From positions 1-58,943 of the forward strand of contig JACQVV010000046.1 of assembly GCA_016209595.1 (NCBI GenBank): a DNA stretch of 58,943 nt, written 5' to 3'. The position numbers were made by a program, and so were the translations under genes. Positions 1-40,900 of this stretch are shown piece after piece (the first letter of the stretch is position 1; each line of letters starts with the position of its first letter). The notes beneath the pieces were generated by a model, which was given only the letters and a program-made list of their open reading frames with translations, ran no database searches and had not been told where the DNA came from. The stretch comes from Planctomycetota bacterium. GTDB lineage: Bacteria; Planctomycetota; JACQVV01.

Positions 1-769
1 CGGGTGGGTGGGGAGCTCCGGCCGCTGGCCGCGCGGTGGGAGGGGGCGGAGGCACGGGCTTGGCAGCGACGCCGGCGGAGGGAGCGGATGGCGCCGCCTC
101 GACCGCGCTCCCGGGCTTTTCCGGGGTCGCGCGTGCGCCCTCCGTTTCTGCGGGTCCCTTCGGCCGCACCGAAGTTGCGAGCTGCGCGCGCTGGTTGATC
201 TGCTCCAGGACGAGTGACGAGATCGCCTTCAGGCTGGGGAATACGCCCGTGCCGTTACAGGCGATCGCCTCGCAGCTCGGAGCCTTCCTCGGGTTGAGCT
301 TCTCTTCGAGCGTTTCGACGGGCAGCGCGGTCGGGAGGTCCCGCTTGTTCCACTGCATGACGAGCGGGATCGTGTCGGGGTCGATCCCGTTCTCCCGCAG
401 GTTCTTGAAGAGGTTGGTGAGGCTCTCGATGTTCTCATCGAGCTTCTCGGCCTGGCTGTCGGCCACGAAGATGACGCCGTCCGCGCCGTTCAGCACGAGC
501 TTGCGGGTCGAGTCGTAGTAGACCTGGCCGGGCACGGTGTAGAGCTGGAACTTCGTCCGCATCCCCGCCACCGAGCCCAAATCGAGGGGCATGAAGTCGA
601 AGAAGAGGGTGCGGTCGCCCTCGGTCGCGATGGAGGTGAGTTTTCCGCGGTTCTGCGGAGGGGCCTTGGAGTGGACGATCTCGATGTTGGTTGTCTTCCC
701 GGAGAGGCCTGGACCGTAGTACACGATCTTGCACTGCACCTCCCGCAGGGCGTAATTGATCTGGGCCAT
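1..769 (-). CDS. mglA: MglA-family Ras-like small GTPase; 3' end runs off the left edge; has a Pro/Ala-rich C-terminal extension
   Basis: Own translation from ATG (complement of 767-769): MAQINYALREVQCKIVYYGPGLSGKTTN...TLFFDF...YTVPGQ...NKRD. The frame stays open to position 2, so it is not in the ORF track. Confidence 0.85.
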   Translation of the reverse strand, partial: MAQINYALREVQCKIVYYGPGLSGKTTNIEIVHSKAPPQNRGKLTSIATEGDRTLFFDFMPLDLGSVAGMRTKFQLYTVPGQVYYDSTRKLVLNGADGVIFVADSQAEKLDENIESLTNLFKNLRENGIDPDTIPLVMQWNKRDLPTALPVETLEEKLNPRKAPSCEAIACNGTGVFPSLKAISSLVLEQINQRAQLATSVRPKGPAETEGARATPEKPGSAVEAAPSAPSAGVAAKPVPPPPPTARPAAGAPHPP

Positions 770-820
770 GAAGGGCGAGTCTCGGGCAGAAAGGAACGTC
801 GGGGGTACGGTCCCCCGGGG

Positions 821-1177
821 TCATCCGGTCAGGATGCGCCCCAGGTTTCGTAGTTTGTAAGCGGCTCCTTCGATCTCCAGCAGGGTGAGATCGAGGTTGA
901 TGTCGCGACGCGTGACGACCACGAGGTAGGTGGGGTCGACGTCCACAAAGATCATCTTACCGTGCGTGGCGGTTAGTACCAGCCGCGAGAAGGCGGAAAG
1001 GCCCATCCGGGCGAGGGAACGGCGCGTGGCGTGAATCGTCGCCGCCGCGAGCGCGGAGACGCTTTCCGTGTCCATGTCTGGCCCCAGGAGGCTCTTCACC
1101 ACGATTCCGTCCCGGTGGACGATGAGCGACCCCTTGACTCCGACGGCCCGGTTCAGGGTCGCGAGGATCCTCTCCAT
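821..1177 (-). CDS. mglB: Roadblock/LC7-domain protein, MglB-like GAP partner of MglA (118 aa)
   Basis: C-terminal part of ORF 821..1522 starting at MERILATLNRAVGVKGSLIVHRDGIVV. Its ATG shares one base with the upstream stop (TGATG). It lies 51 nt upstream of mglA. Confidence 0.8.
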   Translation of the reverse strand: MERILATLNRAVGVKGSLIVHRDGIVVKSLLGPDMDTESVSALAAATIHATRRSLARMGLSAFSRLVLTATHGKMIFVDVDPTYLVVVTRRDINLDLTLLEIEGAAYKLRNLGRILTG

Positions 1178-2742
1178 CACTCCTCGCCTCCTTCGTCGGC
1201 CGGCGGTCCGGCATAGCAGCGATCCACGAAGTGCCGGACCTGCCCGCCGATCCGGTCGGGGGGCTGGGGCTCGGTGAGGTAAAGCCCCAGAACGGCCTTC
1301 TCGAGGTGATAGACGAGGATCTGGCCGAAAGGCCCGGCGATCTCGGCCGAGACGAGCGTCCCGATGTCGAGCTTCTGGCTGTGGGTCGCGGCGGACCCGG
1401 CGAACTCGGCGATCCCTTCTTCGAAGCGACCGGCGCTCATGGCCTCCGTTCCGCCCTGCCCCACGGCGCGAGCTCGACGCCAATCGTCGCTCCGGCCCCT
1501 CTGCTCGCCCTGCTCGGGCCATCCTGGCCCTCGCGACGGGCTCGCTTCGGGCCGGGGCGGCCTCGAACGATTCACCGGATCGTCCTCGGCCGCCCGTTCG
1601 GCGGACATCCTGTCCGCCTCACCCCTGGCCTCCGCTCCCTCCGCGGCGGCCTGCTCGGGCCATCCATGGCCCTCGCCACGGCCGCCGCTCCGGGCCGGGG
1701 CGCCCTGGGACGATTCACCGGATCGTCCCAGGGCGCCCGTCCGCCCGGCATCCTGCCGGGCGGACCCCCTCGGGGGCTTCGCCCCCTCGGCCGGGGGGAC
1801 CGCCACCCCCGGCGCCATCCTGGCGCCCGAGGGGAAGTCCCGCTTCTCCCCCTCCCAGCCGCGGAAGGCGAGCAGCCGTCCGTCCTCGCCGAGGAAGCCG
1901 ACGGCCGAGACCCCGGACAGGTGCCGGAGCGAGTCGATCTCGCGTTCGACTCGCTCCGGGTCGAATCCGGTCCGGGCCGCGAGGCGTTTCTTCTGGGTGG
2001 TGCGCGGGGCTTTCTTCGTCCGCGTGGCGTCGATCCGGACCGTCATCTTCCCGGCGGACTCCACCTGGCGGAGGAGCTCGTCCAGGTCCTCCGTCTCCGG
2101 CTTCGGGCAGGCCGCGGCCCGGTCGAGAAGCTCCGAGAGCGCTGGATCGGCCGGCGCGAAGGTCTGGATTTGCCGGACCCGCTTCAAGCAGTGCCCGACC
2201 GCGCCGATTTCCAGGTAGAGCCGCGCCAGGGCGAGGAGCGCCTTGTAGTTCTTCTCGTTGCGTTCCGCCGCCTTTTCGAGGTGGTCGATGGCCAGGCGGC
2301 CGTCGCGGCGGTGCTTTTCGGCGTGGAACCGGGCGAGGCGGATCTCCCCCAGCACCTGGTGCGGGCCGTCGTCCGCGGGGTACTTCTCGATGGCCTCGCG
2401 GCAGAGGTCGATCGCGCGTTCTTCCTCGTGGACCTCCCGGTAGAGCGCGGCGAGCTGCCCGTAGGTCGAAGCGGAGGGCGCCGTCTCGATCTGCCGCTGG
2501 AGGGCCCGGATCTGGTCCTGGCTTTGCCTCTTCTTGAGCGAGGCGTAGAGCTGGAAGACCGCTTCCGACGCGGGGAACGCTTCCTTTCCGGCGCGCGCGA
2601 TCTCGAAGGCGCGCTCGACGTCTCCCGCGGCGATGAGGTGCTCGGCGAGTTCGACATGAAGCGCGGGGGAGGGGTTCGCCCGAAGGGCCTGCTCGAGGGT
2701 CTCGGTTTCCCTCTTCTGCCGCAGCCTGTCGAAGAATCCCAT
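1177..2742 (-). CDS. TPR-repeat protein with a C-terminal Roadblock-like domain split by a low-complexity insertion
   Basis: ORF 1177..2742. The N-terminal 230 aa are TPR-like helices. LSGVSAVGFLGEDGRLLAF and a distal ...GTLVSAEIAGPFGQILVYHLEKAVLGLYL resemble the two halves of an LC7 fold. AAGGAAG lies upstream of the ATG. Confidence 0.65.
   Translation of the reverse strand: MGFFDRLRQKRETETLEQALRANPSPALHVELAEHLIAAGDVERAFEIARAGKEAFPASEAVFQLYASLKKRQSQDQIRALQRQIETAPSASTYGQLAALYREVHEEERAIDLCREAIEKYPADDGPHQVLGEIRLARFHAEKHRRDGRLAIDHLEKAAERNEKNYKALLALARLYLEIGAVGHCLKRVRQIQTFAPADPALSELLDRAAACPKPETEDLDELLRQVESAGKMTVRIDATRTKKAPRTTQKKRLAARTGFDPERVEREIDSLRHLSGVSAVGFLGEDGRLLAFRGWEGEKRDFPSGARMAPGVAVPPAEGAKPPRGSARQDAGRTGALGRSGESSQGAPARSGGRGEGHGWPEQAAAEGAEARGEADRMSAERAAEDDPVNRSRPPRPEASPSRGPGWPEQGEQRGRSDDWRRARAVGQGGTEAMSAGRFEEGIAEFAGSAATHSQKLDIGTLVSAEIAGPFGQILVYHLEKAVLGLYLTEPQPPDRIGGQVRHFVDRCYAGPPADEGGEE
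1510..1755. repeat. Imperfect tandem duplication, period about 141 bp (47 codons), inside the linker of the TPR/Roadblock gene
   Basis: ctgctcgggccatcc(t/a)tggccctcgc...gggccggggcg...cgattcaccggatcgtcc occurs at about 1510 and again at about 1651. At protein level GWPEQ...G motifs are duplicated. Confidence 0.6.
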
Positions 2743-2812
2743 GGAGACTTCCTTAGGCCGAAGCCTGAACCTTGTTTTCGTTTTCTTTCTGAAGTCTGAA
2801 GGCTGAAGCCTG

Positions 2813-5800
2813 CTACCTGGAAAGGGCGATCAGGCGGCCGTCCTGGGTGGCAAGGAGAATCCGGTCCCCCCAGGCCGCCGGAGGACCTGCCGTCGGGGCC
2901 GGTAGCTGATAGAACCAGAGCGCGCGGCCGGAAGACGCGTCGAACGCGACGACGGAGCCGTCCTTCCCGATGGCGACGAGGCCCGGTCCCGCGACCACCG
3001 GCTGCGAGGCGAGATCGAAGTCGAACAGGTCCAAGTCGGGGAGGGCCGGCGCGGGCTTACCGTCCGCAGCGGCGAGGATCTCGACTCGGCCGCTCTCGCC
3101 CACGAGGAAGAGCGTCTCCCCGGCGGGGGTCGGGGGAACCGCGAGGCCCCGTAGTGCGATCCGTTGCCAGACCGGCTCGCCGTCCTCGGTCCGGAAGGCC
3201 TGGAGTTGCAGCTCGCCCAGGAGAGTGGGCGCGGCGACGGCGACCCGTCCCGCGGCCACGACCGGCCCCCAGGCCGGGCGGCCGGAGAGCTTTCGGCGCC
3301 AAGCGACGGTCCGGGCGGCGGAGTCGAGGCAGACGAGCTCCCCTCCCGAAAGCGCCACCACGACTCGCCCGCCGGGAAGGACGGCCGGCGGGGCCACGAT
3401 CTCGGCGCCCGGGGCCTCCCCGGTCGAGGCGAGCCAGACCGGCTCACCGTCGCCCGCGCGGTGAAACGCGACGCGAAGATCGTCCACGACGGCGGCCACG
3501 AGGCCGGCCGATTCGAGCAGGACGGGCGTTCCGGCCGTGACGCCGCCCGTGGGTCGCTGCCAGACCGCTCCTCCACTTTCCCCGATCCTGTAGAGATCCC
3601 CGGTCGCCGAGAAGTAGAAGTCCGTCCCGGCGCCCACGAGTTCGCCGGAGATTCGAGAACGTCCTTCGAGACGGAAGCGCCACTTCTCCTGCCCGCCCTC
3701 GGAAAGGGAGTAGGCGACGACCTCGCCCTTCGGCGTGCGGACGGAGGCCAGGCCCCCGGCGACCGCGGGGCCCGATTCCAGGACGGTGCCCGTGTCGTGC
3801 ACCCAGAGGGCCTGCTTGGCGAGGCGGACCTCAACCCGCCAGTCCTCCGTCCCGATCGTCCTCTCCACGGCCTCGTATCCGTCGAGCGAGAAACGCGCCT
3901 GCACCATCTGGCCGTACGGGACAAGGATGACACCGTCGGTCCCGACCCGTGCGGACGCTCCGTCCGTGAACTCCAGCCGGGCCTGGGGCGGATAGGAGAC
4001 GAGGAGGATGGGGACCTCGATTTGCTGGCGCACGAACGGCCGCGCGCCGAACTCCTTGACGATAAGCCCGACGTCTCCGAAGGCGGCCCCGATGTCGCCC
4101 TCCAGGCGATGCCGGTCCGCCTCGGCCTGGAGCTCCGCGAGCCGGAGGGCGAGCCCGGCGACCTGCGTCCGGTAGTCCTCCACCTCGCCACGGAAGTCAT
4201 CGGTGAGGGGACCGCCGAGGATTCCCTCCAGCGCGGTCAGCGCCTCCGGGAAGTCCCCGTCGGTTTCGAGCCCCCTCACCCGCGCGAGATCCTTCTCCAT
4301 CTCGCGCGAGCGGTCCTCCTGGTAGCGGACGAACTCGCCCTGCACCGCTCGCTCCCTCCGGCCGGCGAGGACCCCTGCGATCGCGAGCGGGTGTTCCTCG
4401 CGGAAGCGCGCCAGGATGTCGAGCGCCTCCGGGTAGCGTCGGGCGGCCGCCATCCCCTCCACGTCGAGGTCCCGGTATTCGGCGTAGGGACGCCACTGCC
4501 CGTACGCGACGGCCAGGACGGCCAGCAGAGCGGCGAACCAGGCGGCACGGCGCGCCCCCCGCCTGCGGGCGTGGACGGGGGAGGTCGCGACGAGCTGCTG
4601 TCTCGCGTAGTGGAGCTTCCGGTCGATCCCGGCCCGCCGCGGGTCCAGGCGCTGGATCCTCTGGTAGACGTCCACGACGCGGGACCACTCTCCGGAGGCT
4701 GCCAGGCGCGTGGCCATCGCCTCGTAGTGGACCACGGCGTTGCCGGCCGACTTGAGGTCGATCGACAAGTTGATTGCCTTTTCGCGGGCGCCGTAGTTCG
4801 ACGGGTCCGTCGACAGGATCGCCTCGACGAGCTCGTACGCGCCGGTGGCGTCGCTCTCGCGCGTACGGCGGTCGGCGAGACGCAGGGCCCGCTCGAGGAG
4901 CTTACTCGCCCTCTCGCCGACCGCCTCCACGTGGGATGGCAGGAAGAGGGCGACCGCGTCCTCCAGCCCCCGGTGCTCGGGGACCGCCTCCAGGCCCGTC
5001 TCGATGAGCTCGAAGGCCTCCGGCTCCCGGCCCTCCTCGACCAGTCCCGGGATGGCGCGCGCGTACAGGTCCGCCGCCTCCGCGGGACGCCCGAGCTTCC
5101 AGCAGACGTGGCCCTCCTCCAGGAGAGCCGTGCGGTCGCCCGGGCGGTCGGCGAGATAGCTCTCGTAAAGGACGAGAGAGCGCCGCAGCGAGTCGGCGTC
5201 TCCGGCGCCGAGCCCCCGCGCTCGCTCCAGGAGCTCGTCGGGGCCCACGAGGCGGAACACCCCTGTTTCGAGAAACTGGTGGCAGGTCCGGGCGAGCTCG
5301 AACCGCGTGAGGTAGCTCTTCTCGGCGGCTTCGGCGATCGGCGTCTTCCCGTCGAGGAGCCACGAGACGTGGGCGAAGTGCTCCCCGGACGGCGCGGAGC
5401 CCGAGACCGGCTCGAGGACTGCCTGGTCGTGCGGGATCCGCACGCGGATGAGCGTCCACTCGTCCTGCTGGCGGGCGGCCTCCATCACGACCGCGTCCAC
5501 CGGGAAGGCCGGAATCGCGCCGCCCGCGAGGCGGCGACCCGCCGAAGGGTCCTCCCGGTAGCTGAACGTCCCTTCCTTGAGATGGAAGAGCGACAGGAGC
5601 CGGTCCTGGTGCCAGAGCCGGCGGAGCCCTTCGATGTCCTGGGCCGGAACGCCAGCGTCTTTTCGCAAGAGATCGTAGTAGGACCGCCCCGTCCGGACGC
5701 GCGCGTCCAGGACCTGCCGGAGCGCCGCTTCGTCCATGAGCCCGAGGGCGAAGCACTGGTGGGGGAGCCCGGGACGGTCGTCGAACCCCCCTTCCGCGAG

Positions 5801-6004
5801 CGCGACCTCGTTCGCCGCGAGCAGCACCTCCGCTCGCCGATCCCGGGAGTTCACCGCGAGGACGCCGACCTTCCCGCCCGAGGCCAGGGTCTGGAGGATC
5901 TCTCCCAGACCCACTTTCGTGATGTTGCCGTGGAAGGTGGTCTCCATGCCTGGGTGACGCGGACCCGGGTGGGATAGGGATTCGGCCAAGCTCACTCGGA
6001 TCAT
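2813..6004 (-). CDS. Large multidomain protein: N-terminal DUF4388/PATAN domain, TPR region, one TM helix, PEGA-like domain, C-terminal PQQ/BamB-like beta-propeller
   Basis: ORF 2813..6004. Contains FHGNITKVGLGEILQTLASGGKVGVLAV (DUF4388 signature), TM AAWFAALLAVLAVAYGQW, and C-terminal W/G-rich propeller repeats. An alternative start is METTFHG at 5947. Confidence 0.75.
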   Translation of the reverse strand: MIRVSLAESLSHPGPRHPGMETTFHGNITKVGLGEILQTLASGGKVGVLAVNSRDRRAEVLLAANEVALAEGGFDDRPGLPHQCFALGLMDEAALRQVLDARVRTGRSYYDLLRKDAGVPAQDIEGLRRLWHQDRLLSLFHLKEGTFSYREDPSAGRRLAGGAIPAFPVDAVVMEAARQQDEWTLIRVRIPHDQAVLEPVSGSAPSGEHFAHVSWLLDGKTPIAEAAEKSYLTRFELARTCHQFLETGVFRLVGPDELLERARGLGAGDADSLRRSLVLYESYLADRPGDRTALLEEGHVCWKLGRPAEAADLYARAIPGLVEEGREPEAFELIETGLEAVPEHRGLEDAVALFLPSHVEAVGERASKLLERALRLADRRTRESDATGAYELVEAILSTDPSNYGAREKAINLSIDLKSAGNAVVHYEAMATRLAASGEWSRVVDVYQRIQRLDPRRAGIDRKLHYARQQLVATSPVHARRRGARRAAWFAALLAVLAVAYGQWRPYAEYRDLDVEGMAAARRYPEALDILARFREEHPLAIAGVLAGRRERAVQGEFVRYQEDRSREMEKDLARVRGLETDGDFPEALTALEGILGGPLTDDFRGEVEDYRTQVAGLALRLAELQAEADRHRLEGDIGAAFGDVGLIVKEFGARPFVRQQIEVPILLVSYPPQARLEFTDGASARVGTDGVILVPYGQMVQARFSLDGYEAVERTIGTEDWRVEVRLAKQALWVHDTGTVLESGPAVAGGLASVRTPKGEVVAYSLSEGGQEKWRFRLEGRSRISGELVGAGTDFYFSATGDLYRIGESGGAVWQRPTGGVTAGTPVLLESAGLVAAVVDDLRVAFHRAGDGEPVWLASTGEAPGAEIVAPPAVLPGGRVVVALSGGELVCLDSAARTVAWRRKLSGRPAWGPVVAAGRVAVAAPTLLGELQLQAFRTEDGEPVWQRIALRGLAVPPTPAGETLFLVGESGRVEILAAADGKPAPALPDLDLFDFDLASQPVVAGPGLVAIGKDGSVVAFDASSGRALWFYQLPAPTAGPPAAWGDRILLATQDGRLIALSR

Positions 6005-6119
6005 TGTAGATACGCGCGGGGCCGATTCAAGGCGACGCTCCGCGCCCCCCAGCCTTGGAGTGTTCTCTAGTAGCGCCGTGTTGCGCTCGCCTGGATTCTG
6101 TGACGTGCCCCGGGCGTGG

Positions 6120-7724
6120 TCAAGGCGGGCGCCGGCCCTCTCGCCGGTAGAGCGTCACACGCACATCGCCGATCGACCCGGGCCACCATTCCCCCTGTCC
6201 CGTGTGGCGGAAGCCGAGCTCCCAGAGAATCTCGCGCCCGGCCCCCGTGGGGCGAGCGAGGTAGTTCCCGGACACCTCGACGAGCCAGACGCGGTCGGCG
6301 GCGAGGAGCCTGTTTTTCCAGCCCTCGGCGTCCTTTTCGGCGGCGAGCGGCGAAACGTCATCGAGACGCCCCTCGCGGAGAGCGTAGACGAGCGGCACGC
6401 GAAGGCGCCCGGGATCACAGGCGATCTCGTCGCCGGCGGCGAGGTTTTCTTCGAGATGGCGCGCGGCGGACCGCCAGTCCTCCTTCTCGCGACCCTGGTC
6501 GATCCTGTGGCTCGCGAAATTCGCGATCGCGAGGACTCCGGCGAAGAGAGCGAAGCCCACGATTCCGGCGGCCCCGGCGCGACCGCCTCGGTCGCGCAGT
6601 CGGTCCAGCCGGTCGAGGAGCGCGCCGAAGGCGAGGAAGACGAGCGGGGCGACGAAGACAAGGTGCTTCGCCTCGAAGAGGTGGGCGCGGAACGGCAGGA
6701 CCGCGACGAGGACTGGAGGGCCGAGGAGGCCGGCCGCAAGCGGGAGACGGATCGAGGGAGACGCGCTCCTGCCGGCGAACAAAAGGCCCGTCGCGAGTGC
6801 CGCTCCGAGGAGGAGGGCGAGGGCGAGACCCGCGGCGGGCGGGAGCGGAAGGTCAGTTCCCACCGCGAACGATTCGAGCGTCTTCGGAAGCGTCCATCCC
6901 GGGAACGGGAATCCCGATCCCTCCTGGGGTCCCGCCGCCCGGAGTTCCCGCGCCCGTTCCAGGAGGCGAGGAAGCCACGGGAGGAAGGCGAACGCTGCGG
7001 CCCCTAGAGCGGCGACGATCGCCAGGGCATTCCGTCGCGGCCTCCTGAAACAACGGACGAGCGCCACGAGGCCGAGGGGGACCGCGAGGAGGACGCTGTA
7101 GTAGAAGGTATAGAGCGCGAGAGCCACGAGGAGCCCGTGGGAGGCGGCGAGCAGGGCGATCTCGCCGCGAGAGGCGCGCGCCGGGGCGGGGGGCGGGGCG
7201 GGCGGCGGAGGCGTGAGCAGCCGCATGTACGGGAGGAGCGCGGCGAGAAGAAGGAGTTCGACCGTCGCGTAGTGCCTTGCCTCCTGGGCAAACTCGACCT
7301 GGAAAGCGGAGAGCGCGAAGAGGAGGCCCGTGGCGAACGAGGCCCGCGGGCCCAGGAACGCCAGGCAGAGCCGGTAGAGAACGAGGACGGCGAGCACGGA
7401 AACCACCGCGGACAAGGAGCGCATCGCGGCCGGCGATTCGCCGAAAGAGCCCGTCCAGAGGTGGAGGCAGAGGTAGTAGAAGGGAGGGTGGGCATCGTGG
7501 CGGGCGACGGTGCGGACGACGTCGGCCAGGCTCCCTCCCGGCACGCACCGATCGAGGCTGTAGGCCTCGTCGAGCCACAGGGACCGCGATCCGAGGCCGG
7601 CGAACCGCACCGCGACCGCCGTCGCGAGGAGGACCGGGATGTGCCAGCGCGGCCGGGTCCGGGCTCCTCCGGAAAGCGGAACTCGGAAGGCGGAACGCGG
7701 AACTTCCTCCCGCTCTTCCTCCAA
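6120..7724 (-). CDS. GT-C fold membrane glycosyltransferase (family 39 / ArnT-PMT-like)
   Basis: ORF 6120..7724. Many TM segments, and an LWLDEAYS acidic motif in the first loop typical of GT39/PMT_2. Confidence 0.7.
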   Translation of the reverse strand: MEEEREEVPRSAFRVPLSGGARTRPRWHIPVLLATAVAVRFAGLGSRSLWLDEAYSLDRCVPGGSLADVVRTVARHDAHPPFYYLCLHLWTGSFGESPAAMRSLSAVVSVLAVLVLYRLCLAFLGPRASFATGLLFALSAFQVEFAQEARHYATVELLLLAALLPYMRLLTPPPPAPPPAPARASRGEIALLAASHGLLVALALYTFYYSVLLAVPLGLVALVRCFRRPRRNALAIVAALGAAAFAFLPWLPRLLERARELRAAGPQEGSGFPFPGWTLPKTLESFAVGTDLPLPPAAGLALALLLGAALATGLLFAGRSASPSIRLPLAAGLLGPPVLVAVLPFRAHLFEAKHLVFVAPLVFLAFGALLDRLDRLRDRGGRAGAAGIVGFALFAGVLAIANFASHRIDQGREKEDWRSAARHLEENLAAGDEIACDPGRLRVPLVYALREGRLDDVSPLAAEKDAEGWKNRLLAADRVWLVEVSGNYLARPTGAGREILWELGFRHTGQGEWWPGSIGDVRVTLYRREGRRPP

Positions 7725-8456
7725 CTAGTCCTCCTCGCACTCCCTCCAGTAGGCCGCCAGATCGAACGCGAGGCCGGGAATCGCCCGCGAGCGGACGATC
7801 TCCTTCTCGGACCGGATCTCCTCCCACCCCGTGCCCTGGGCGTTTCTCGCGAGGAATAGCCCCCCGCGCGGCGGGATGGTGCAGCTCGAGTGCCGGACGG
7901 CGGGGTTGAGGAGCCAGTACTCGGGCACGCCCGACTCGAGGTAGCTACGCATCTTGTCCACCTTGTCCGCCCTGCCTAGCCCGAGATCCTGCCGCCACGT
8001 GTCGCGGGAGAGGATCTCGACCACGAGGAGGACTCCGTCCGGCGCGAAATCGGTTCCTCCCCGGGGAGTGCGGACATAACCGGGTTTCCGACCGAAGCAG
8101 GCCACGTCGGGGGCAAGCGTCTTGGGTCCCAGGAAAGACTCCCGGAGGAGCTTGCCGCGCAGGTTATAGATGTGAGAGAACGCGATCGAGCGCTCGTGCA
8201 GGACGCGATAGGGTCGCGTAAGGAGCCCTCGCAGAAGGGGCGCCAAAATGCAGAGCGGAAATCCGTGGAATCTCGCGTCGTCCGGACTCATGAGGATGAG
8301 CCTCCCCGCCTCGTCCCGGGAGTAGCGGTTCCCGTCCGGCGGGATGGCCAGGAGGTCCGCGAGATCGATGTAGGAACCCAGCTGGTAGCGGTCGCTCGCA
8401 AGGCCTGTCGTCATGGCGTCTTGAGTATACCTTTCCTTGAAGCTCCCCGGGAGCAT
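7725..8456 (-). CDS. Uma2-family (DUF820) putative endonuclease
   Basis: ORF 7725..8456. PDVACF...PDGVLLVVEILS...DKVDKMRSYLESGVPEYWLLNP matches the PD-(D/E)xK Uma2 pattern. Its stop abuts the start of the downstream GT gene. Confidence 0.7.
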   Translation of the reverse strand: MLPGSFKERYTQDAMTTGLASDRYQLGSYIDLADLLAIPPDGNRYSRDEAGRLILMSPDDARFHGFPLCILAPLLRGLLTRPYRVLHERSIAFSHIYNLRGKLLRESFLGPKTLAPDVACFGRKPGYVRTPRGGTDFAPDGVLLVVEILSRDTWRQDLGLGRADKVDKMRSYLESGVPEYWLLNPAVRHSSCTIPPRGGLFLARNAQGTGWEEIRSEKEIVRSRAIPGLAFDLAAYWRECEED

Positions 8457-8850: not shown

Positions 8851-9666
8851 TTGTTCCGCGACGAAGCGCTCGTCCTCCGGCGCCACGACTGGTCCGAGTC
8901 GAGCCAGATCGCGAACCTCCTGACCCGCGAGCACGGAAAACGTTCCGTGCTCGCCAAGGGCTCCCGGCGAGAGCGGCTGAAGGGTCAGGGCCCCCGCGGG
9001 ATCGACCTCCTCTCGCGTCTCTGGGTCACGATCTACCCGAAGCGCGGCGACGCGCTCGACCTTCTGGGAGACTGGGAGCCCCTCGACGTGGCGACCCGGA
9101 TCCGCGCCTCCCTCGAGACGCTCCTCCCCGCCCTCTACCTTGCCGAGCTCGCGGACGCTCTCACTCCGCTCGCCGATCCCGCCCCGGAGGTCTACGACGG
9201 GCTCGCCTGGTCGCTCGCCGCGCTGGGAGGCGGCGGCGGCGGGGCCTCTCCCGTGAGGCCGCGCGACTCGACCGGCCCCTTCTTCTCCGGCCTGTCGCGG
9301 ATTCTCGCGTCCCTCGGCTACTTCCATCCCCGTGCCGGGTGTGCTGCCTGCGGGCGGTCTTTCGCCGGGCACGGGCCGCTCCGGTTCGCCCCCGCCTCCG
9401 GCGGAATCCTCTGCCGGGATTGCAAGGAGGACGAACCTCGGACCGTTCCTCTCTCGGCCGGCGCGGGCGCGGTCCTCGCCGCGCTTGCCGCCGGGAACGT
9501 CGATCCCTTGCGGGTCCGGGTCTCGCGCGCCCAGGCCGCGGAGCTCTGGCGGGCGCTCTCGCGGTTCGTCTGGGAGGTCGCGGAGAAAAGGCTCCGGGCC
9601 GAAGGCGCCGTAGATCGCCTTCTCGCTCCCCGGCAAGCCCCCGCTCGCGCCGGAGCCGCGCGGTGA
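8851..9666 (+). CDS. recO: DNA repair protein RecO
   Basis: ORF 8851..9666 (TTG start). Contains FRDEALVLRRHDWSESSQIANLLTREHGKRSVLAKG (OB-fold N-terminus) and zinc motif CAACG...CRDC. Confidence 0.8.
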   Translation: MFRDEALVLRRHDWSESSQIANLLTREHGKRSVLAKGSRRERLKGQGPRGIDLLSRLWVTIYPKRGDALDLLGDWEPLDVATRIRASLETLLPALYLAELADALTPLADPAPEVYDGLAWSLAALGGGGGGASPVRPRDSTGPFFSGLSRILASLGYFHPRAGCAACGRSFAGHGPLRFAPASGGILCRDCKEDEPRTVPLSAGAGAVLAALAAGNVDPLRVRVSRAQAAELWRALSRFVWEVAEKRLRAEGAVDRLLAPRQAPARAGAAR

Positions 9667-37908: not shown

Positions 37909-40900
37909 TTAGCTGCCGTCGCCATCCGCGTCGCCGTCGGCATCACCGTCTGCGTCGCCGTCGGCGTCGCCGTCGGCATCACCGACGGCGTCGTCGTCCC
38001 CGTCGCCATCGGCGTCCGCGTCGGCATCGCCATCGGCATCCCCGTCGGCGTCGCCGTCCCCGTCGCCATCGGCATCCCCGTCGGCGTCGCCATCACCGTC
38101 GCCATCCGCGTCCGCGTCGGCATCGCCATCGGCATCCCCGTCTGCGTCGCCGTCCCCGTCGCCATCCGCATCCCCGTCGGCGTCGCCGTCCGCGTCCCCG
38201 TCTGCGTCGCCATCCGCGTCCCCATCTGCGTCGCCATCCGCGTCCCCATCTGCGTCGCCATCCGCGTCCCCGTCGGCGTCGCCGTCCGCGTCCCCGTCGG
38301 CGTCGCCGTCCGCGTCCCCGTCGGCGTCGCCGTCCGCGTCCGCCTCTCCCCCTTGGCTCCCGCTTCCCGCGTCCGGATCGTCGGAGGCCCCGCCGCCCTC
38401 GAAGCCCTCCGAGGAGTCCCCATCGTCCGGGTCGTCTCCGGGGTCGTCACCGGAGTCCTGGTAGTCCTCGGGGTCGTCCTCCGGCGCAGGCGAACGCTCG
38501 CGGGGCTGTCGATCCGGAACCTTGTCCATCTCCTCTGTCGCGATCCGCGCCAGGAAGAGGAGCCTGTTCTTCGTTCCCGCGTCCTCGACCGCCCGTCTCG
38601 CCAGCCGGCGGGCCCCGAAGGGCTCCCGCAAGAAGAGGTAGAGGACGGCCGCCTCCTCGACATCCAGTCCAGCCGGCGGATCCGGGTCGCCCTTCGAGCC
38701 GAGGTCGCGACCCAGGGCGAGCGCGACCAGGTCGTCCGCGTGGATGTCGAGGATCCGGCCATCTTCCGCCTCGGAGTCGTTCCCCGTTCGGAAACTGAGC
38801 GCCGTCCGGGCGGGAGAGCTCGCGGCCCGAACCTCAGTGACCTTCCGCGCCTTGCGAGCGTCCTCGCCTTCCAGGCGAAACCAGAGCGTCCGGTTTGCGG
38901 CATCGGCTTCCGAGAGTCGCGCCGCGATCCGGCCGAGCGCCTCGGCATATCCCGTGACGAGCGCCCGCTCCCCTTCCACGGGGTAGGTCCTGTCCGCCAG
39001 GCGGATCTCCTCGGGCGGGATCGCCCAGGCCCGGGCTGCCCCTTCGAGGTCCCCTGCGAAGGCGCTCCGCCACATCTGCCGTCTCGCCTCGTCGAGCCGC
39101 GCGGCGATATCGTCGACTCGCTTCGCGAGTGCCGCGCCCTGCGGGTCGGCCGGTTCGATCCATGGGGCCGACGCCCTCGCCCTCTCCCGGGCGGCCTTGA
39201 CGTTCCCCTCGGCGAGCGACGCGAAGATCCGGTCGATCTCGCTGGGCCTGGCATCGGCGAGAAGCCGCTCGGCCGCCGCGCGGCTCGCCTCGAACTCCGC
39301 CGCCTTCACGGGAGACTCGCCGCCGAGTCCCTCGACGAGCTCCCGGATTCGCGCGTCCTGGAGTTTCTGCTTCGCCTCGGCGATTTTCGCCGGCTCCCCC
39401 GACGCCAGGAGCTCGTCTACCTGCGCCTTCGCCCGCGAGACGGTTCCGGTGAGTTCGGAAATCTCTTTCGCCACGAGCTCCCGGAGCGCCGCGACCCGGC
39501 TCTCGGCGTTCGCGACTCCGGCTTCCCGCTCGAGGGGCGCGAGCTGGGCGTCGAGGATCTTCGCCGCGCGGTCCCGCGCCGCGAGCAGCCCGGCGGGAGT
39601 CCCCTTCGCGATCTCGCTCTCGATCTCACCCGTCTCGTGCTCGAAGAGTTCGCGTGCCCTGGATGCCAGGTCCGTCTGGAGCGTGTCGATCCCTTGCGTC
39701 CAGGGGAGGTCGGGATACCACGCACGCGCTGCGACGATCGCCGCGAACGCCTGGGAGACGTTCCACGCGTCAACCGCCGCGGCGAGATCGGCCGAGAGCG
39801 AGTCAAGACGGCCCCGCAGGAGCTCCGTCGCGCGGATCGCGCTCTTCACCCAGGCGGCCGTGCCGGGAAACCTGTCGACGATTCGCCGGTAGTTCCCGAG
39901 GACCGCCGGGAGCTCCTTCGAGTCGCCTCCCCACTCCAGGCGAACCGTCTCGGCAGCGGTCCAGAGCGCCTCCGTGTCGACGGCGGTCACGGCCGGGCCG
40001 CCTCCCGCGAGGTCGATCGGTGTCTCGCCGCCCCTCGGTCCGGTGTCCGCGGCGCGCGTCTCCGGGCCGGGTCCGGAGGCCGGGGAGCCGGATGCCGCGG
40101 GCCTCCCCGCCGGCGAGTCCGCGCGGGTGTCGGTCGCGGGAGCCGCGCCCTCCTCCTCGCCTTGTTCGAGGAATCCTCCGGCCCAGGCGACCGTCCCCGC
40201 GAGCGCGAGGACTGCGGCCACGATCCATCCACGCCGGACGAGAGCCCTCGCGCGCCGGGAGACGGGCCCCCGGATCTTCCCGCCGGCCTTGAGCGTCGCG
40301 ATCTCCTCCAGGACCTCCTCCATCGTCTGCGGGCGGAGCTCGGGGTCCTTCGCCGTCATCCGATAGAGGAGCTTGACGGGCTCGCCCCGGGCCTCGGGAT
40401 TGAGCAGGGCCGGGTCGGAGATGTTCTCGTGCCGCTGCTTGTCGATCAGGGCGAGCGGCGACGTGGCGTCGAAGGGCTGCTTTCCCGCGAGCAGGAAGTA
40501 GAAGGTAAGACCAAGGGAGTAGATGTCGGTGCGGTAGTCCACCACGTCGCCGGAGGCCTGCTCGGGCGACATGTAGTGGGGGGTCCCCAGGACCTGTCCC
40601 GTGGCTGTGAGGTGGCTGTCGATCGCGGTGTCGCGTGCGAGTCCGAAGTCGGCAACGAGAACTTTTCCCTCCTTGTTGATGAGGAGGTTGTCGGGCTTGA
40701 CGTCGCGGTGGATGATCCCCACCCGGTGGATCGCCGCGAGCCCGTGCGCCGCCTGCTCGAGGAGATCGAGCGCCTCCTTCATGGAGAGGGGCTCGCTTCG
40801 GGACCGCACGTGGCGAGACAGGTTCGTCCCGTCCACGAACGGCATGACGCAGTAGTGACGCCCGCCATCCTCGCCGAAGCGCAGGATGGGGACCGTGTGG

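Follow-up and report, generated by a model that had tools for sequence, protein, structure and literature searches.

The MglA/MglB pair is the paradigm of Ras-like polarity control in bacteria; work on it, in Myxococcus, Thermus and Bdellovibrio, has dealt almost exclusively with a soluble system. The described module of Thermus thermophilus comprises MglA and MglB, while that of Myxococcus xanthus also includes MglC, RomR/RomX and RomY, MglC being a Roadblock paralogue that binds MglB (PMC7949163). According to Wuichet and Sogaard-Andersen 2014 (PMC4316618), Group 1 MglA proteins are defined by a P-loop GxxxxGKT, an intrinsic arginine next to the G2 threonine and the motif TVPGQ; MglB homologues span 129-179 amino acids (aa), and some systems contain two MglB-like genes. 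In the same survey, PATAN genes are reported "occasionally" near certain mglA genes of Groups 1 and 5, and the PATAN-mglA/mglB neighbourhood also appears in Makarova 2006, as cited there; the gene association itself is not new. Planctomycetes are not among the Group 1 lineages of that survey, which describes neither a fusion to tetratricopeptide repeats (TPRs) nor a membrane anchor. The present analysis concerns an mglA locus at the left end of contig JACQVV010000046.1 from a Planctomycetota bacterium, and the window analysed is this entire contig of 58,943 nucleotides (nt). Four co-directional open reading frames (ORFs) on the minus strand, which an earlier note on this DNA had correctly called, encode a predicted bitopic PATAN-propeller protein, a TPR protein fused to a Roadblock domain, a minimal Roadblock protein of 118 aa and MglA (Table 1). 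The identity of these parts, and of the module to which they belong, can be assigned from their sequences with high confidence. As a whole, the locus is best explained as a membrane-tethered MglA switch encoded by a five-gene planctomycetal operon, four genes of which lie in the window, and this explanation, its inferred mechanism included, is given a little more than even credence.

Similar to the M. xanthus and T. thermophilus systems, the planctomycetal module has an orthologous MglA and, in relatives, an mglB orthologue next to mglA, and it shares with M. xanthus the presence of extra Roadblock paralogues, as MglC is there. It differs from both in that planctomycetal MglA has a long Pro/Ala linker followed, in the relatives, by a transmembrane tail anchor, and in that the module adds two Roadblock domains (one of them fused to TPRs) and a bitopic protein running from a PATAN domain to a propeller. 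The earlier note had placed two extra partners outside the M. xanthus and Thermus modules, and they do remain outside. In addition, mglB lies downstream of mglA in planctomycetal loci whereas it lies upstream in Myxococcus, no RomR, RomX or RomY gene is present in the planctomycetal block, and the extra Roadblock proteins have no specific similarity to M. xanthus MglC.

MglA, its tail and the MglB orthologue

The last ORF of the block matches small-GTPase families in Pfam, and residues 1-192 of its G domain (residues 1-195, nt 185-769) match the characterised MglA proteins of M. xanthus (6h17/5ymx) and T. thermophilus with phmmer E-values of 1.4e-71 and 1.3e-66. The motifs GPGLSGKTT (P-loop), DRTLFFDF (with the intrinsic Arg) and TVPGQ (G3) are all kept in the alignment to 6h17, and on these residues the protein is a true Group 1 MglA orthologue. 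The earlier note had named the gene rightly; the gene is incomplete in the window. Since the window is the whole contig, the truncation is an effect of assembly and not of the choice of window. The protein is not of the single-domain soluble type of ~195 aa, as at least 61 extra Pro/Ala-rich residues follow the G domain, in a linker (residues 196-256, nt 2-184) that is cut by the contig end. The contigs of this window and of three relatives (L001, L082 and L083) all end within this linker, and the high-GC, low-complexity linker seems to break short-read assemblies systematically.

MglA proteins of relatives are 305-557 aa long, with linkers of 80-332 aa (median 110 aa) that consist to 75% of P/A/G/S/T/Q. 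A hydrophobic helix, preceded by K/R, lies 2-14 residues from the C-terminus in 56 of the 58 complete relatives (for instance L040:10001-10942 and L066:10001-10930), which indicates that MglA is tail-anchored in the membrane in this clade. No description of a tail-anchored planctomycetal MglA was found in the literature searched.

The earlier note had assigned the 118-aa gene immediately upstream of mglA to mglB. Its product does have the Roadblock fold (Pfam Robl_LC7, E 1.3e-8, 34.9 bits against a cut-off of 23), but it does not appear to be the MglB orthologue. MglB carries a C-terminal extension beyond the Roadblock core. The 118-aa protein, with relatives of 113-122 aa, is shorter than the MglB range given above (PMC4316618). 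The profile of its family (alignment A2) best matches the Asgard Roadblock protein 7yh1 (7e-14), 9jue, 7f8m and dynein LC7, and retrieves no MglB chain from the PDB at E<0.01. MglC (7CT3) is likewise missing from the matches of A2 at E<0.01, and from those at E<10 of alignment A1, which holds the last 140 residues of 56 locus-derived TPR-Roadblock homologues. These matches mark the 118-aa protein as a generic minimal Roadblock and not an MglB orthologue. The earlier note had suggested a likeness of the extra Roadblock domain to MglC/RomY-type co-regulators; an MglC-like role would be an analogy, and the block has no RomY gene.

The true MglB orthologue, judged by profile comparison, is the gene downstream of mglA, which here would lie past the contig end. 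In 53 of 55 loci, a fifth gene for a Roadblock protein of ~172 aa begins 5-147 nt downstream of mglA (for instance L040:10958-11473 and L007:11067-11576). Its family matches Pfam Robl_LC7 at 1e-12 to 1e-15, has a mean column identity of 67% and a conserved C-terminal LDxLF motif, and its profile reaches M. xanthus MglB along the entire length at E 1.6e-36, and Thermus MglB at 1e-25. When families were compared by hhalign, the MglB orthologue family was related to the 118-aa family with 87.5% probability and to the fused Roadblock domain with 3.4%, while A1 against A2 gave 96.8% (E 2e-10); by these scores each of the two upstream Roadblock domains has its nearest relative in the other. The conserved unit, as read from the related loci, thus comprises five genes and three Roadblock domains.

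The extent of conservation was assessed by a one-genome-per-species scan with the MglA G domain, which returned more than 560 relatives; the loci studied are the best 80, all of which come from Planctomycetota metagenome-assembled genomes (MAGs), including Brocadiaceae/Kuenenia and Phycisphaerales. Blocks were scored by tblastn with the window domains and ORF extraction, and a locus counted as testable with at least 5.6 kb upstream of mglA (65 loci). Of the 65 testable loci, 42 carry the full set of three upstream genes, whose products are held within narrow size limits (1044-1159, 343-405 and 113-122 aa). The PATAN-bearing N-terminal 260 residues of the large protein have a tblastn match upstream of mglA in 52 related loci. 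The contig of P0002 (L001) carries the same four genes, with identities of 31% for the propeller C-terminus, 52% for the TPR-Roadblock protein, 71% for the 118-aa protein and 85% for MglA, and the contigs of P0005 (L082/L083), likewise a homologue of the TPR-Roadblock protein, show the same gene order; these are the two closest relatives. By its recurrence, such an arrangement is far beyond chance. The earlier note had made its proposal depend on synteny in relatives and, because synteny is conserved phylum-wide, the proposal stands on that point. Moreover, the TGA stop of the TPR-Roadblock gene (1179-1177) and the ATG start of the 118-aa gene (1177-1175) have base 1177 in common, so that the TGATG overlap described earlier is real, and an overlap of 1, 4 or 8 nt is kept in 32 of 54 related loci; this argues that the 118-aa gene is translationally coupled to the TPR-Roadblock gene.

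Some of the loci belong to a divergent MglA clade (L025, L041, L046, L048, L057, L061, L068, L069, L076, L077 and L081) with longer linkers and proteins of 366-557 aa. Its testable members keep the tail helix, except L068 (a sequence with X residues), as well as the downstream MglB. Their upstream genes are partly or not recognisable with the window queries, a TPR match being found in six loci. A Roadblock-like gene of 206-212 aa is present in L025 and in the related L035.

The fused Roadblock domain, its insertion and the bitopic protein

The AlphaFold2 model of the TPR-Roadblock protein, built on a 33-sequence alignment (A6), has a predicted local distance difference test score (pLDDT) above 90 over residues 1-230 and an alpha-beta-beta-[insert]-alpha-beta-beta-beta-alpha topology at the C-terminus, with low confidence at 301-433. 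Pfam Robl_LC7 gives no match in the 521-aa window protein alone and is matched by 15 of 56 members of the family (best E 4e-7), while the A1 profile finds the Roadblock proteins Rv3364c, 7yh1 and 7f8m in the PDB at ~1e-5. Foldseek searches with the model of the C-terminal region returned Roadblock or longin-type folds as nearly all top matches, including the Asgard Roadblock proteins 7yh1 and 9jue, LAMTOR p14/MP1, Rag C-terminal domains and Mon1-Ccz1. The TM-score against M. xanthus MglB 6hjm is 0.71-0.78 when normalised to the target, with E-values that are weak (0.018 or higher) because the insert interrupts the domain; the full-length model retrieves TPR proteins only. As modelled, the TPR protein has a Roadblock fold at its C-terminus, and the prediction of the earlier note that it would model as one was borne out by profiles, AlphaFold2 and Foldseek. 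The structure and alignment work was based on A6 and A10; alignments A4, A5 and A9 were discarded, MAFFT having misplaced the insert-bearing C-terminus with its short N-terminal anchor.

The split of this domain is a private insertion and not a feature of its design. A search with the 521-aa protein as single sequence gave one true homologue, P0002 (380 aa; 52% identity), whose alignment covers residues 1-290 and 427-512 and skips ~135 residues. The insert is unique among ~88 homologues, of which 56 are locus-derived (343-405 aa) and 32 come from the database (346-380 aa). The split is peculiar to this genome, since all other family members are 343-405 aa long and lack the insert. Each of its two tandem units contains a hairpin of 12 or 8 bp with a GGA loop and a hairpin of ~17 bp around ACGAT-CCGGTGA-ATCGT; the stems differ in sequence between the units yet stay paired by compensatory changes, and the folding of the insert RNA is stronger than that of shuffles (z = -8.4). 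Since the two units are translated in different frames, the repeat is a feature of the DNA and not a peptide repeat, and in the AlphaFold2 model the insert has a pLDDT below 50 apart from one helix.

A related unit is found in frame in an unrelated ABC transporter of a Planctomycetes MAG (P0003; 68% identity over 69 aa), where it appears to lie between the first two membrane helices. With this copy the known units total three, two in the insert and one in P0003. The 59-kb window holds no further copy, an exhaustive phmmer search of the unit against 1.84 billion representative proteins returned the window protein only, an Rfam search of the insert gave chance-level microRNA matches and no family, and a scan of metagenome contigs with the 19-nt core of the repeat gave 17 loci sharing only ~20-30 nt, which is the chance level. 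The insert is most aptly seen as a palindromic repeat, rare and lineage-specific, that a surface loop accommodates, and by the model the Roadblock fold is predicted to tolerate a loop insertion of 137 aa. In Rickettsia, palindromic elements reportedly described by Ogata et al. in 2000 are said to be in-frame repeats within protein-coding genes. These elements, also mentioned in PMC1166351 and PMC1458961, resemble the present repeat in that a hairpin-forming palindromic repeat lies in frame in ORFs, in a surface loop, with the predicted fold intact and a copy in an unrelated gene; they differ in that three units only are known here and a mobile multi-copy family is not demonstrated. A hairpin-rich repeat lying in frame within a folded domain bears on how far coding regions tolerate repeat insertions.

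The large protein has homologues of 1044-1159 aa at the same position in 47 loci, and a search with the 1063-aa protein as single sequence gave one true homologue. Its architecture had earlier been read as PATAN, TPR, a transmembrane helix, PEGA and a propeller, and all of these parts except PEGA are recovered in the window protein itself. The PATAN domain scores above the gathering threshold of PF14332, and PatA_N is also on record for the L082 homologue; in the TPR region, matches to TPR_12, TPR_16, TPR_7 and TPR_2 stay under their cut-offs beside the TPR_14 match of Table 1. One strong hydrophobic segment occurs at residue 449-496 in 43 of the 47 homologues, mostly with an R/K cluster before it. 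With the basic cluster N-terminal to the helix, the positive-inside rule places PATAN and TPR in the cytoplasm and ~560 residues outside. The protein is thus predicted to be bitopic, with its N-terminal half in the cytoplasm and its C-terminal half in the periplasm, so that it could link the two compartments as the earlier note had supposed.

The region between the helix and the propeller matched TPR_6 in 19, TPR_14 in 16 and YfiO in 3 of the 48 family members scanned, and residues ~505-665 have weak PDB profile matches to YfiO/BamD and CpoB. PEGA (PF08308) has no Pfam match in the window protein and can be claimed at the family level only, where it is matched by 19 of 48 homologues (best E 3e-8); the PEGA match of L010 (E 4e-7, above cut-off) corresponds column by column to window residues 666-733. 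The propeller was also compared with BamB itself, an identity which is rejected (TIGR03300, 84.7 against a cut-off of 285.2; NF008351, 52.8 against 423); by its PQQ_2 repeats it would be BamB-like in type only.

Table 1. Features of the mglA locus in the window (all on the minus strand; residue numbers refer to the protein concerned)
Feature	Position (nt)	Strand	Basis and remarks
Gene of the predicted bitopic membrane protein	2813..6004	-	ORF calling (6004..2813); 1063 aa from the first ATG, 1044 aa if the start is M20 (nt 5947)
PATAN (DUF4388/PatA_N), residues 25-183	5456..5932	-	Pfam PF14332, E 2.2e-15, 57.2 bits against a cut-off of 25
Predicted cytoplasmic TPR region, residues ~263-462	4619..5218	-	Pfam TPR_14, 27.8 bits against a cut-off of 23.5
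Predicted single transmembrane helix, residues 487-504, AAWFAALLAVLAVAYGQW	4493..4546	-	Sequence; basic cluster RRRGARR before it
Predicted periplasmic helical TPR-like region, residues ~505-665	4010..4492	-	Family scan; resembles BamD/YfiO and CpoB/YbgF
PEGA-like beta-sandwich, residues 666-733	3806..4009	-	Homologue alignment only
PQQ-type (BamB-like) beta-propeller, residues ~745-1063	2816..3772	-	Pfam PQQ_2 at 845-1063, E 3.3e-28, 99 bits against 27.6
TPR-Roadblock fusion gene	1177..2742	-	ORF calling (2742..1177); 521 aa, against 343-405 aa in all homologues examined
TPR domain, residues 1-230 (~11-12 helices)	2053..2742	-	Pfam TPR_19, TPR_20, TPR_17, TPR_14
Roadblock N-terminal half (alpha1-beta1-beta2), residues ~255-299	1846..1980	-	Alignments A6 and A10; AlphaFold2 H262-273, E278-285, E290-294
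In-frame insertion of 411 nt (137 aa), beta2-alpha2 loop	1435..1845	-	Missing from all homologues
Tandem units of the insertion, ~140 nt each	1490-1625 and 1630-1768	-	81% identical
Roadblock C-terminal half (alpha2-beta3-beta4-beta5-alpha3), residues ~437-512	1207..1434	-	AlphaFold2 H437-458, E465-470, E473-480, E483-489, H495-509; pLDDT 76-90
TGATG stop/start overlap of the TPR-Roadblock and 118-aa genes	1175..1179	-	Sequence
Minimal Roadblock/LC7 gene	821..1177	-	ORF calling (1177..821); 118 aa; labelled "MglB" in the earlier note
mglA, 5' part	1..769	-	ORF calling (769..<1); at least 256 aa, open at the contig end
Sigma-70-like promoter match, directly 5' of the large gene	6003..6030	-	Consensus match only
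Second sigma-70-like match	6123-6095	-	Consensus match only

Upstream of the large gene, the 116-nt gap contains two sigma-70-like matches, where shuffles would lead one to expect 0.2. The proximal one, which ends at 6003, is consistent with translation from M20, the start also chosen by the gene caller (protein database entry P0074, 1044 aa). A terminator-like hairpin at 817-800 was considered as a transcription stop and rejected, such sites being no commoner than in shuffles. Upstream of the block lie genes for a PMT_2-type membrane glycosyltransferase (6120-7724, minus strand), a Uma2-family endonuclease (7725-8456, minus strand), whose stop abuts the start of the glycosyltransferase gene, and RecO (8851-9666, plus strand). 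The glycosyltransferase and Uma2 genes were rejected as members of the module, being absent from the best 80 loci; the former is kept upstream in the closest relative L082 only. Elsewhere in the window, a nested tandem array at 37917-38341 (periods of 6, 24 and 96 nt; consensus CGTCGG, ~70 copies) falls within long ORFs of both strands.

How the module may work

A mechanism can be inferred from homology and gene order. The tail anchor would keep MglA at the cytoplasmic membrane, where its GTP/GDP cycle would run on the inner face; the downstream MglB, as a homodimer, would act as GTPase-activating protein (GAP), the role it has in Myxococcus and Thermus. A heterodimer is the probable form of the two paralogous upstream Roadblock domains, and its TPR arm would dock the GTPase/GAP pair on the cytoplasmic PATAN-TPR head of the bitopic protein, an adaptor role like that of MglC. 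The bitopic protein, in turn, may read or mark a site in the envelope through its periplasmic TPR-like, PEGA and propeller parts, and the switch would thereby be positioned relative to an envelope landmark. The adaptor step, in which a Roadblock heterodimer docks the GTPase and its GAP to the bitopic protein, is put forward tentatively and is the more doubtful part of this scheme. Compared with the earlier note, the interpretation needs three corrections, namely that the true MglB lies elsewhere, that the split is a private insertion and that the GTPase is membrane-tethered in this clade.

Several points weigh against the scheme. The adaptor, GAP and sensor roles are all assigned by homology and gene order, and the 118-aa Roadblock family has no specific MglC similarity, so that "MglC-like" denotes analogy and not homology. 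With mglA truncated in the window, its tail anchor and the downstream mglB are supplied from relatives, both being present in L066, the closest relative with a complete mglA. Moreover, a full block was not scored in 23 of the 65 testable loci; these belong mostly to the one divergent MglA clade, whose upstream genes may be of another kind or may merely be missed by tblastn. The insertion, finally, might compromise the function of the TPR-Roadblock protein in this organism.

The same genes may be read in another way, in which the upstream Roadblock pair is a nucleotide-exchange factor (GEF) for MglA, the downstream MglB is the GAP and the PATAN protein is a receptor or effector, the locus then encoding a full GEF-GTPase-GAP-effector set. 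By analogy, the pair resembles the eukaryotic heterodimeric Roadblock/longin platforms Ragulator and Mon1-Ccz1; LAMTOR p14/MP1, Rag C-terminal domains and Mon1-Ccz1 are among the Foldseek matches of the fused domain, and the two paralogous domains of the pair are translationally coupled. It would also suit an exchange factor that the conserved block has no RomR/RomX-type gene and that a separate, canonical MglB is available for GAP activity. However, no bacterial Roadblock protein is known as a GEF, and the pair is much less conserved (35-49% mean column identity) than MglA or MglB (67% for MglB). An exchange-factor role is regarded as unlikely, though it is the main rival reading.

Another proposal concerns this genome only and is compatible with any mechanism of the family: the TPR-Roadblock gene could be decaying or hypomorphic, its Roadblock domain disrupted by the 411-nt insertion and its ORF being open only as stops are rare at 70% G+C. 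Besides being unique among the ~88 homologues, the insert lacks the normal GC pattern over codon positions (G+C at second positions, GC2, 0.72 against ~0.45 normally), its units are read in different frames, and overlapping frames are also open there. The GC pattern was set aside as proof of a non-coding origin, since a Gly/Ala/Pro/Arg-rich composition confounds it and the MglA linker is alike. Against decay, the length of the insert is a multiple of three and keeps the frame, the insert lies exactly in a surface loop (beta2-alpha2), and its two flanking halves model as one Roadblock fold (pLDDT 76-91). These halves keep a coding G+C at third positions (GC3) of 0.86-0.91, and the downstream translational coupling is intact. 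A decaying gene is on these grounds rather improbable.

Least probable of all is that the 118-aa protein is the functional MglB GAP, the TPR-Roadblock protein an MglC/RomY-type co-regulator and the four genes the whole module, for although the gene directly precedes mglA, the place of mglB in M. xanthus, matches Robl_LC7 and is linked by its profile to the MglB orthologue family (87.5%), no solved MglB is retrieved by its family at E<0.01 while the downstream 172-aa family reaches 1.6e-36, its 118 aa are fewer than the 129-179 aa of MglB homologues (PMC4316618), and a downstream MglB gene is present in 53 of 55 loci.

Relation to other systems and significance

The proposed membrane-tethered switch may be compared with several known systems beyond the M. 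xanthus and Thermus modules. The PATAN proteins PatA and the cyanobacterial PixG/PixE type share with it a DUF4388/PATAN domain above the Pfam cut-off, here encoded beside mglA and Roadblock genes; they differ in that PATAN here is without a receiver fusion and forms the predicted cytoplasmic head of a membrane-spanning protein of ~1060 aa. Furthermore, the PATAN-mglA neighbourhood is occasional in PMC4316618 and near-universal in this phylum. The actinobacterial conservons (CvnA-D) likewise combine a membrane-embedded sensor, one or more Roadblock proteins and a GTPase of the MglA family (PMC4316618, PMC13343842), whereas the planctomycetal candidate sensor lacks a histidine-kinase module, no CvnC/DUF742 gene is present, and the GTPase is Group 1 MglA-like, with an intrinsic arginine, and itself probably membrane-anchored. 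SgmX of M. xanthus (PMC7519303, PMC7668184) and Bd2492 of Bdellovibrio (PMC3983030) are also TPR proteins linked to MglA; unlike the present protein, they are stand-alone TPR effectors without a Roadblock fusion.

In architecture, planctomycetal MglA resembles eukaryotic Ras/Rab proteins with their hypervariable region, as a G domain is followed by a flexible linker of low complexity and, at the C-terminus, by an anchor in the membrane; the anchor is a putative transmembrane helix in the former and a lipid in the latter, and the likeness is one of architecture only, with no orthology claimed. Ragulator-Rag platforms offer a further likeness, as Roadblock-fold dimers (LAMTOR p14/MP1 and Rag C-terminal domains in the Foldseek matches) would be the candidate regulatory platform here. 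Searches of full-text literature on MglA/MglB combined with Planctomycetes/Planctomycetota, Roadblock, tail-anchored and C-terminal transmembrane segment, whose coverage was incomplete, gave no description of such a module, and the five-gene module appears to be undescribed. No polarity regulator for Planctomycetota was found in the literature searched.

Planctomycetota are characterised by budding, by division without FtsZ and by extensive membrane invaginations. It is possible, but put forward with less than even confidence, that they possess a Ras-like switch that is tethered to the membrane through a long flexible linker and a tail anchor, controlled both by a canonical MglB and by a distinct heterodimeric Roadblock platform, and wired to a PATAN-propeller protein reaching into the periplasm. 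If this is true, eukaryotic signalling by membrane-anchored small GTPases would have a bacterial counterpart in the module, which would also be a prime candidate for a planctomycete polarity or envelope-organising system. Roadblock heterodimers are GTPase platforms in eukaryotes and Asgard archaea, and the module would provide a natural test of whether they act as such in bacteria. It would, moreover, extend the MglA/MglB paradigm to membrane-bound signalling and offer, for spatial organisation in planctomycete cells, a concrete candidate that can be tested genetically.

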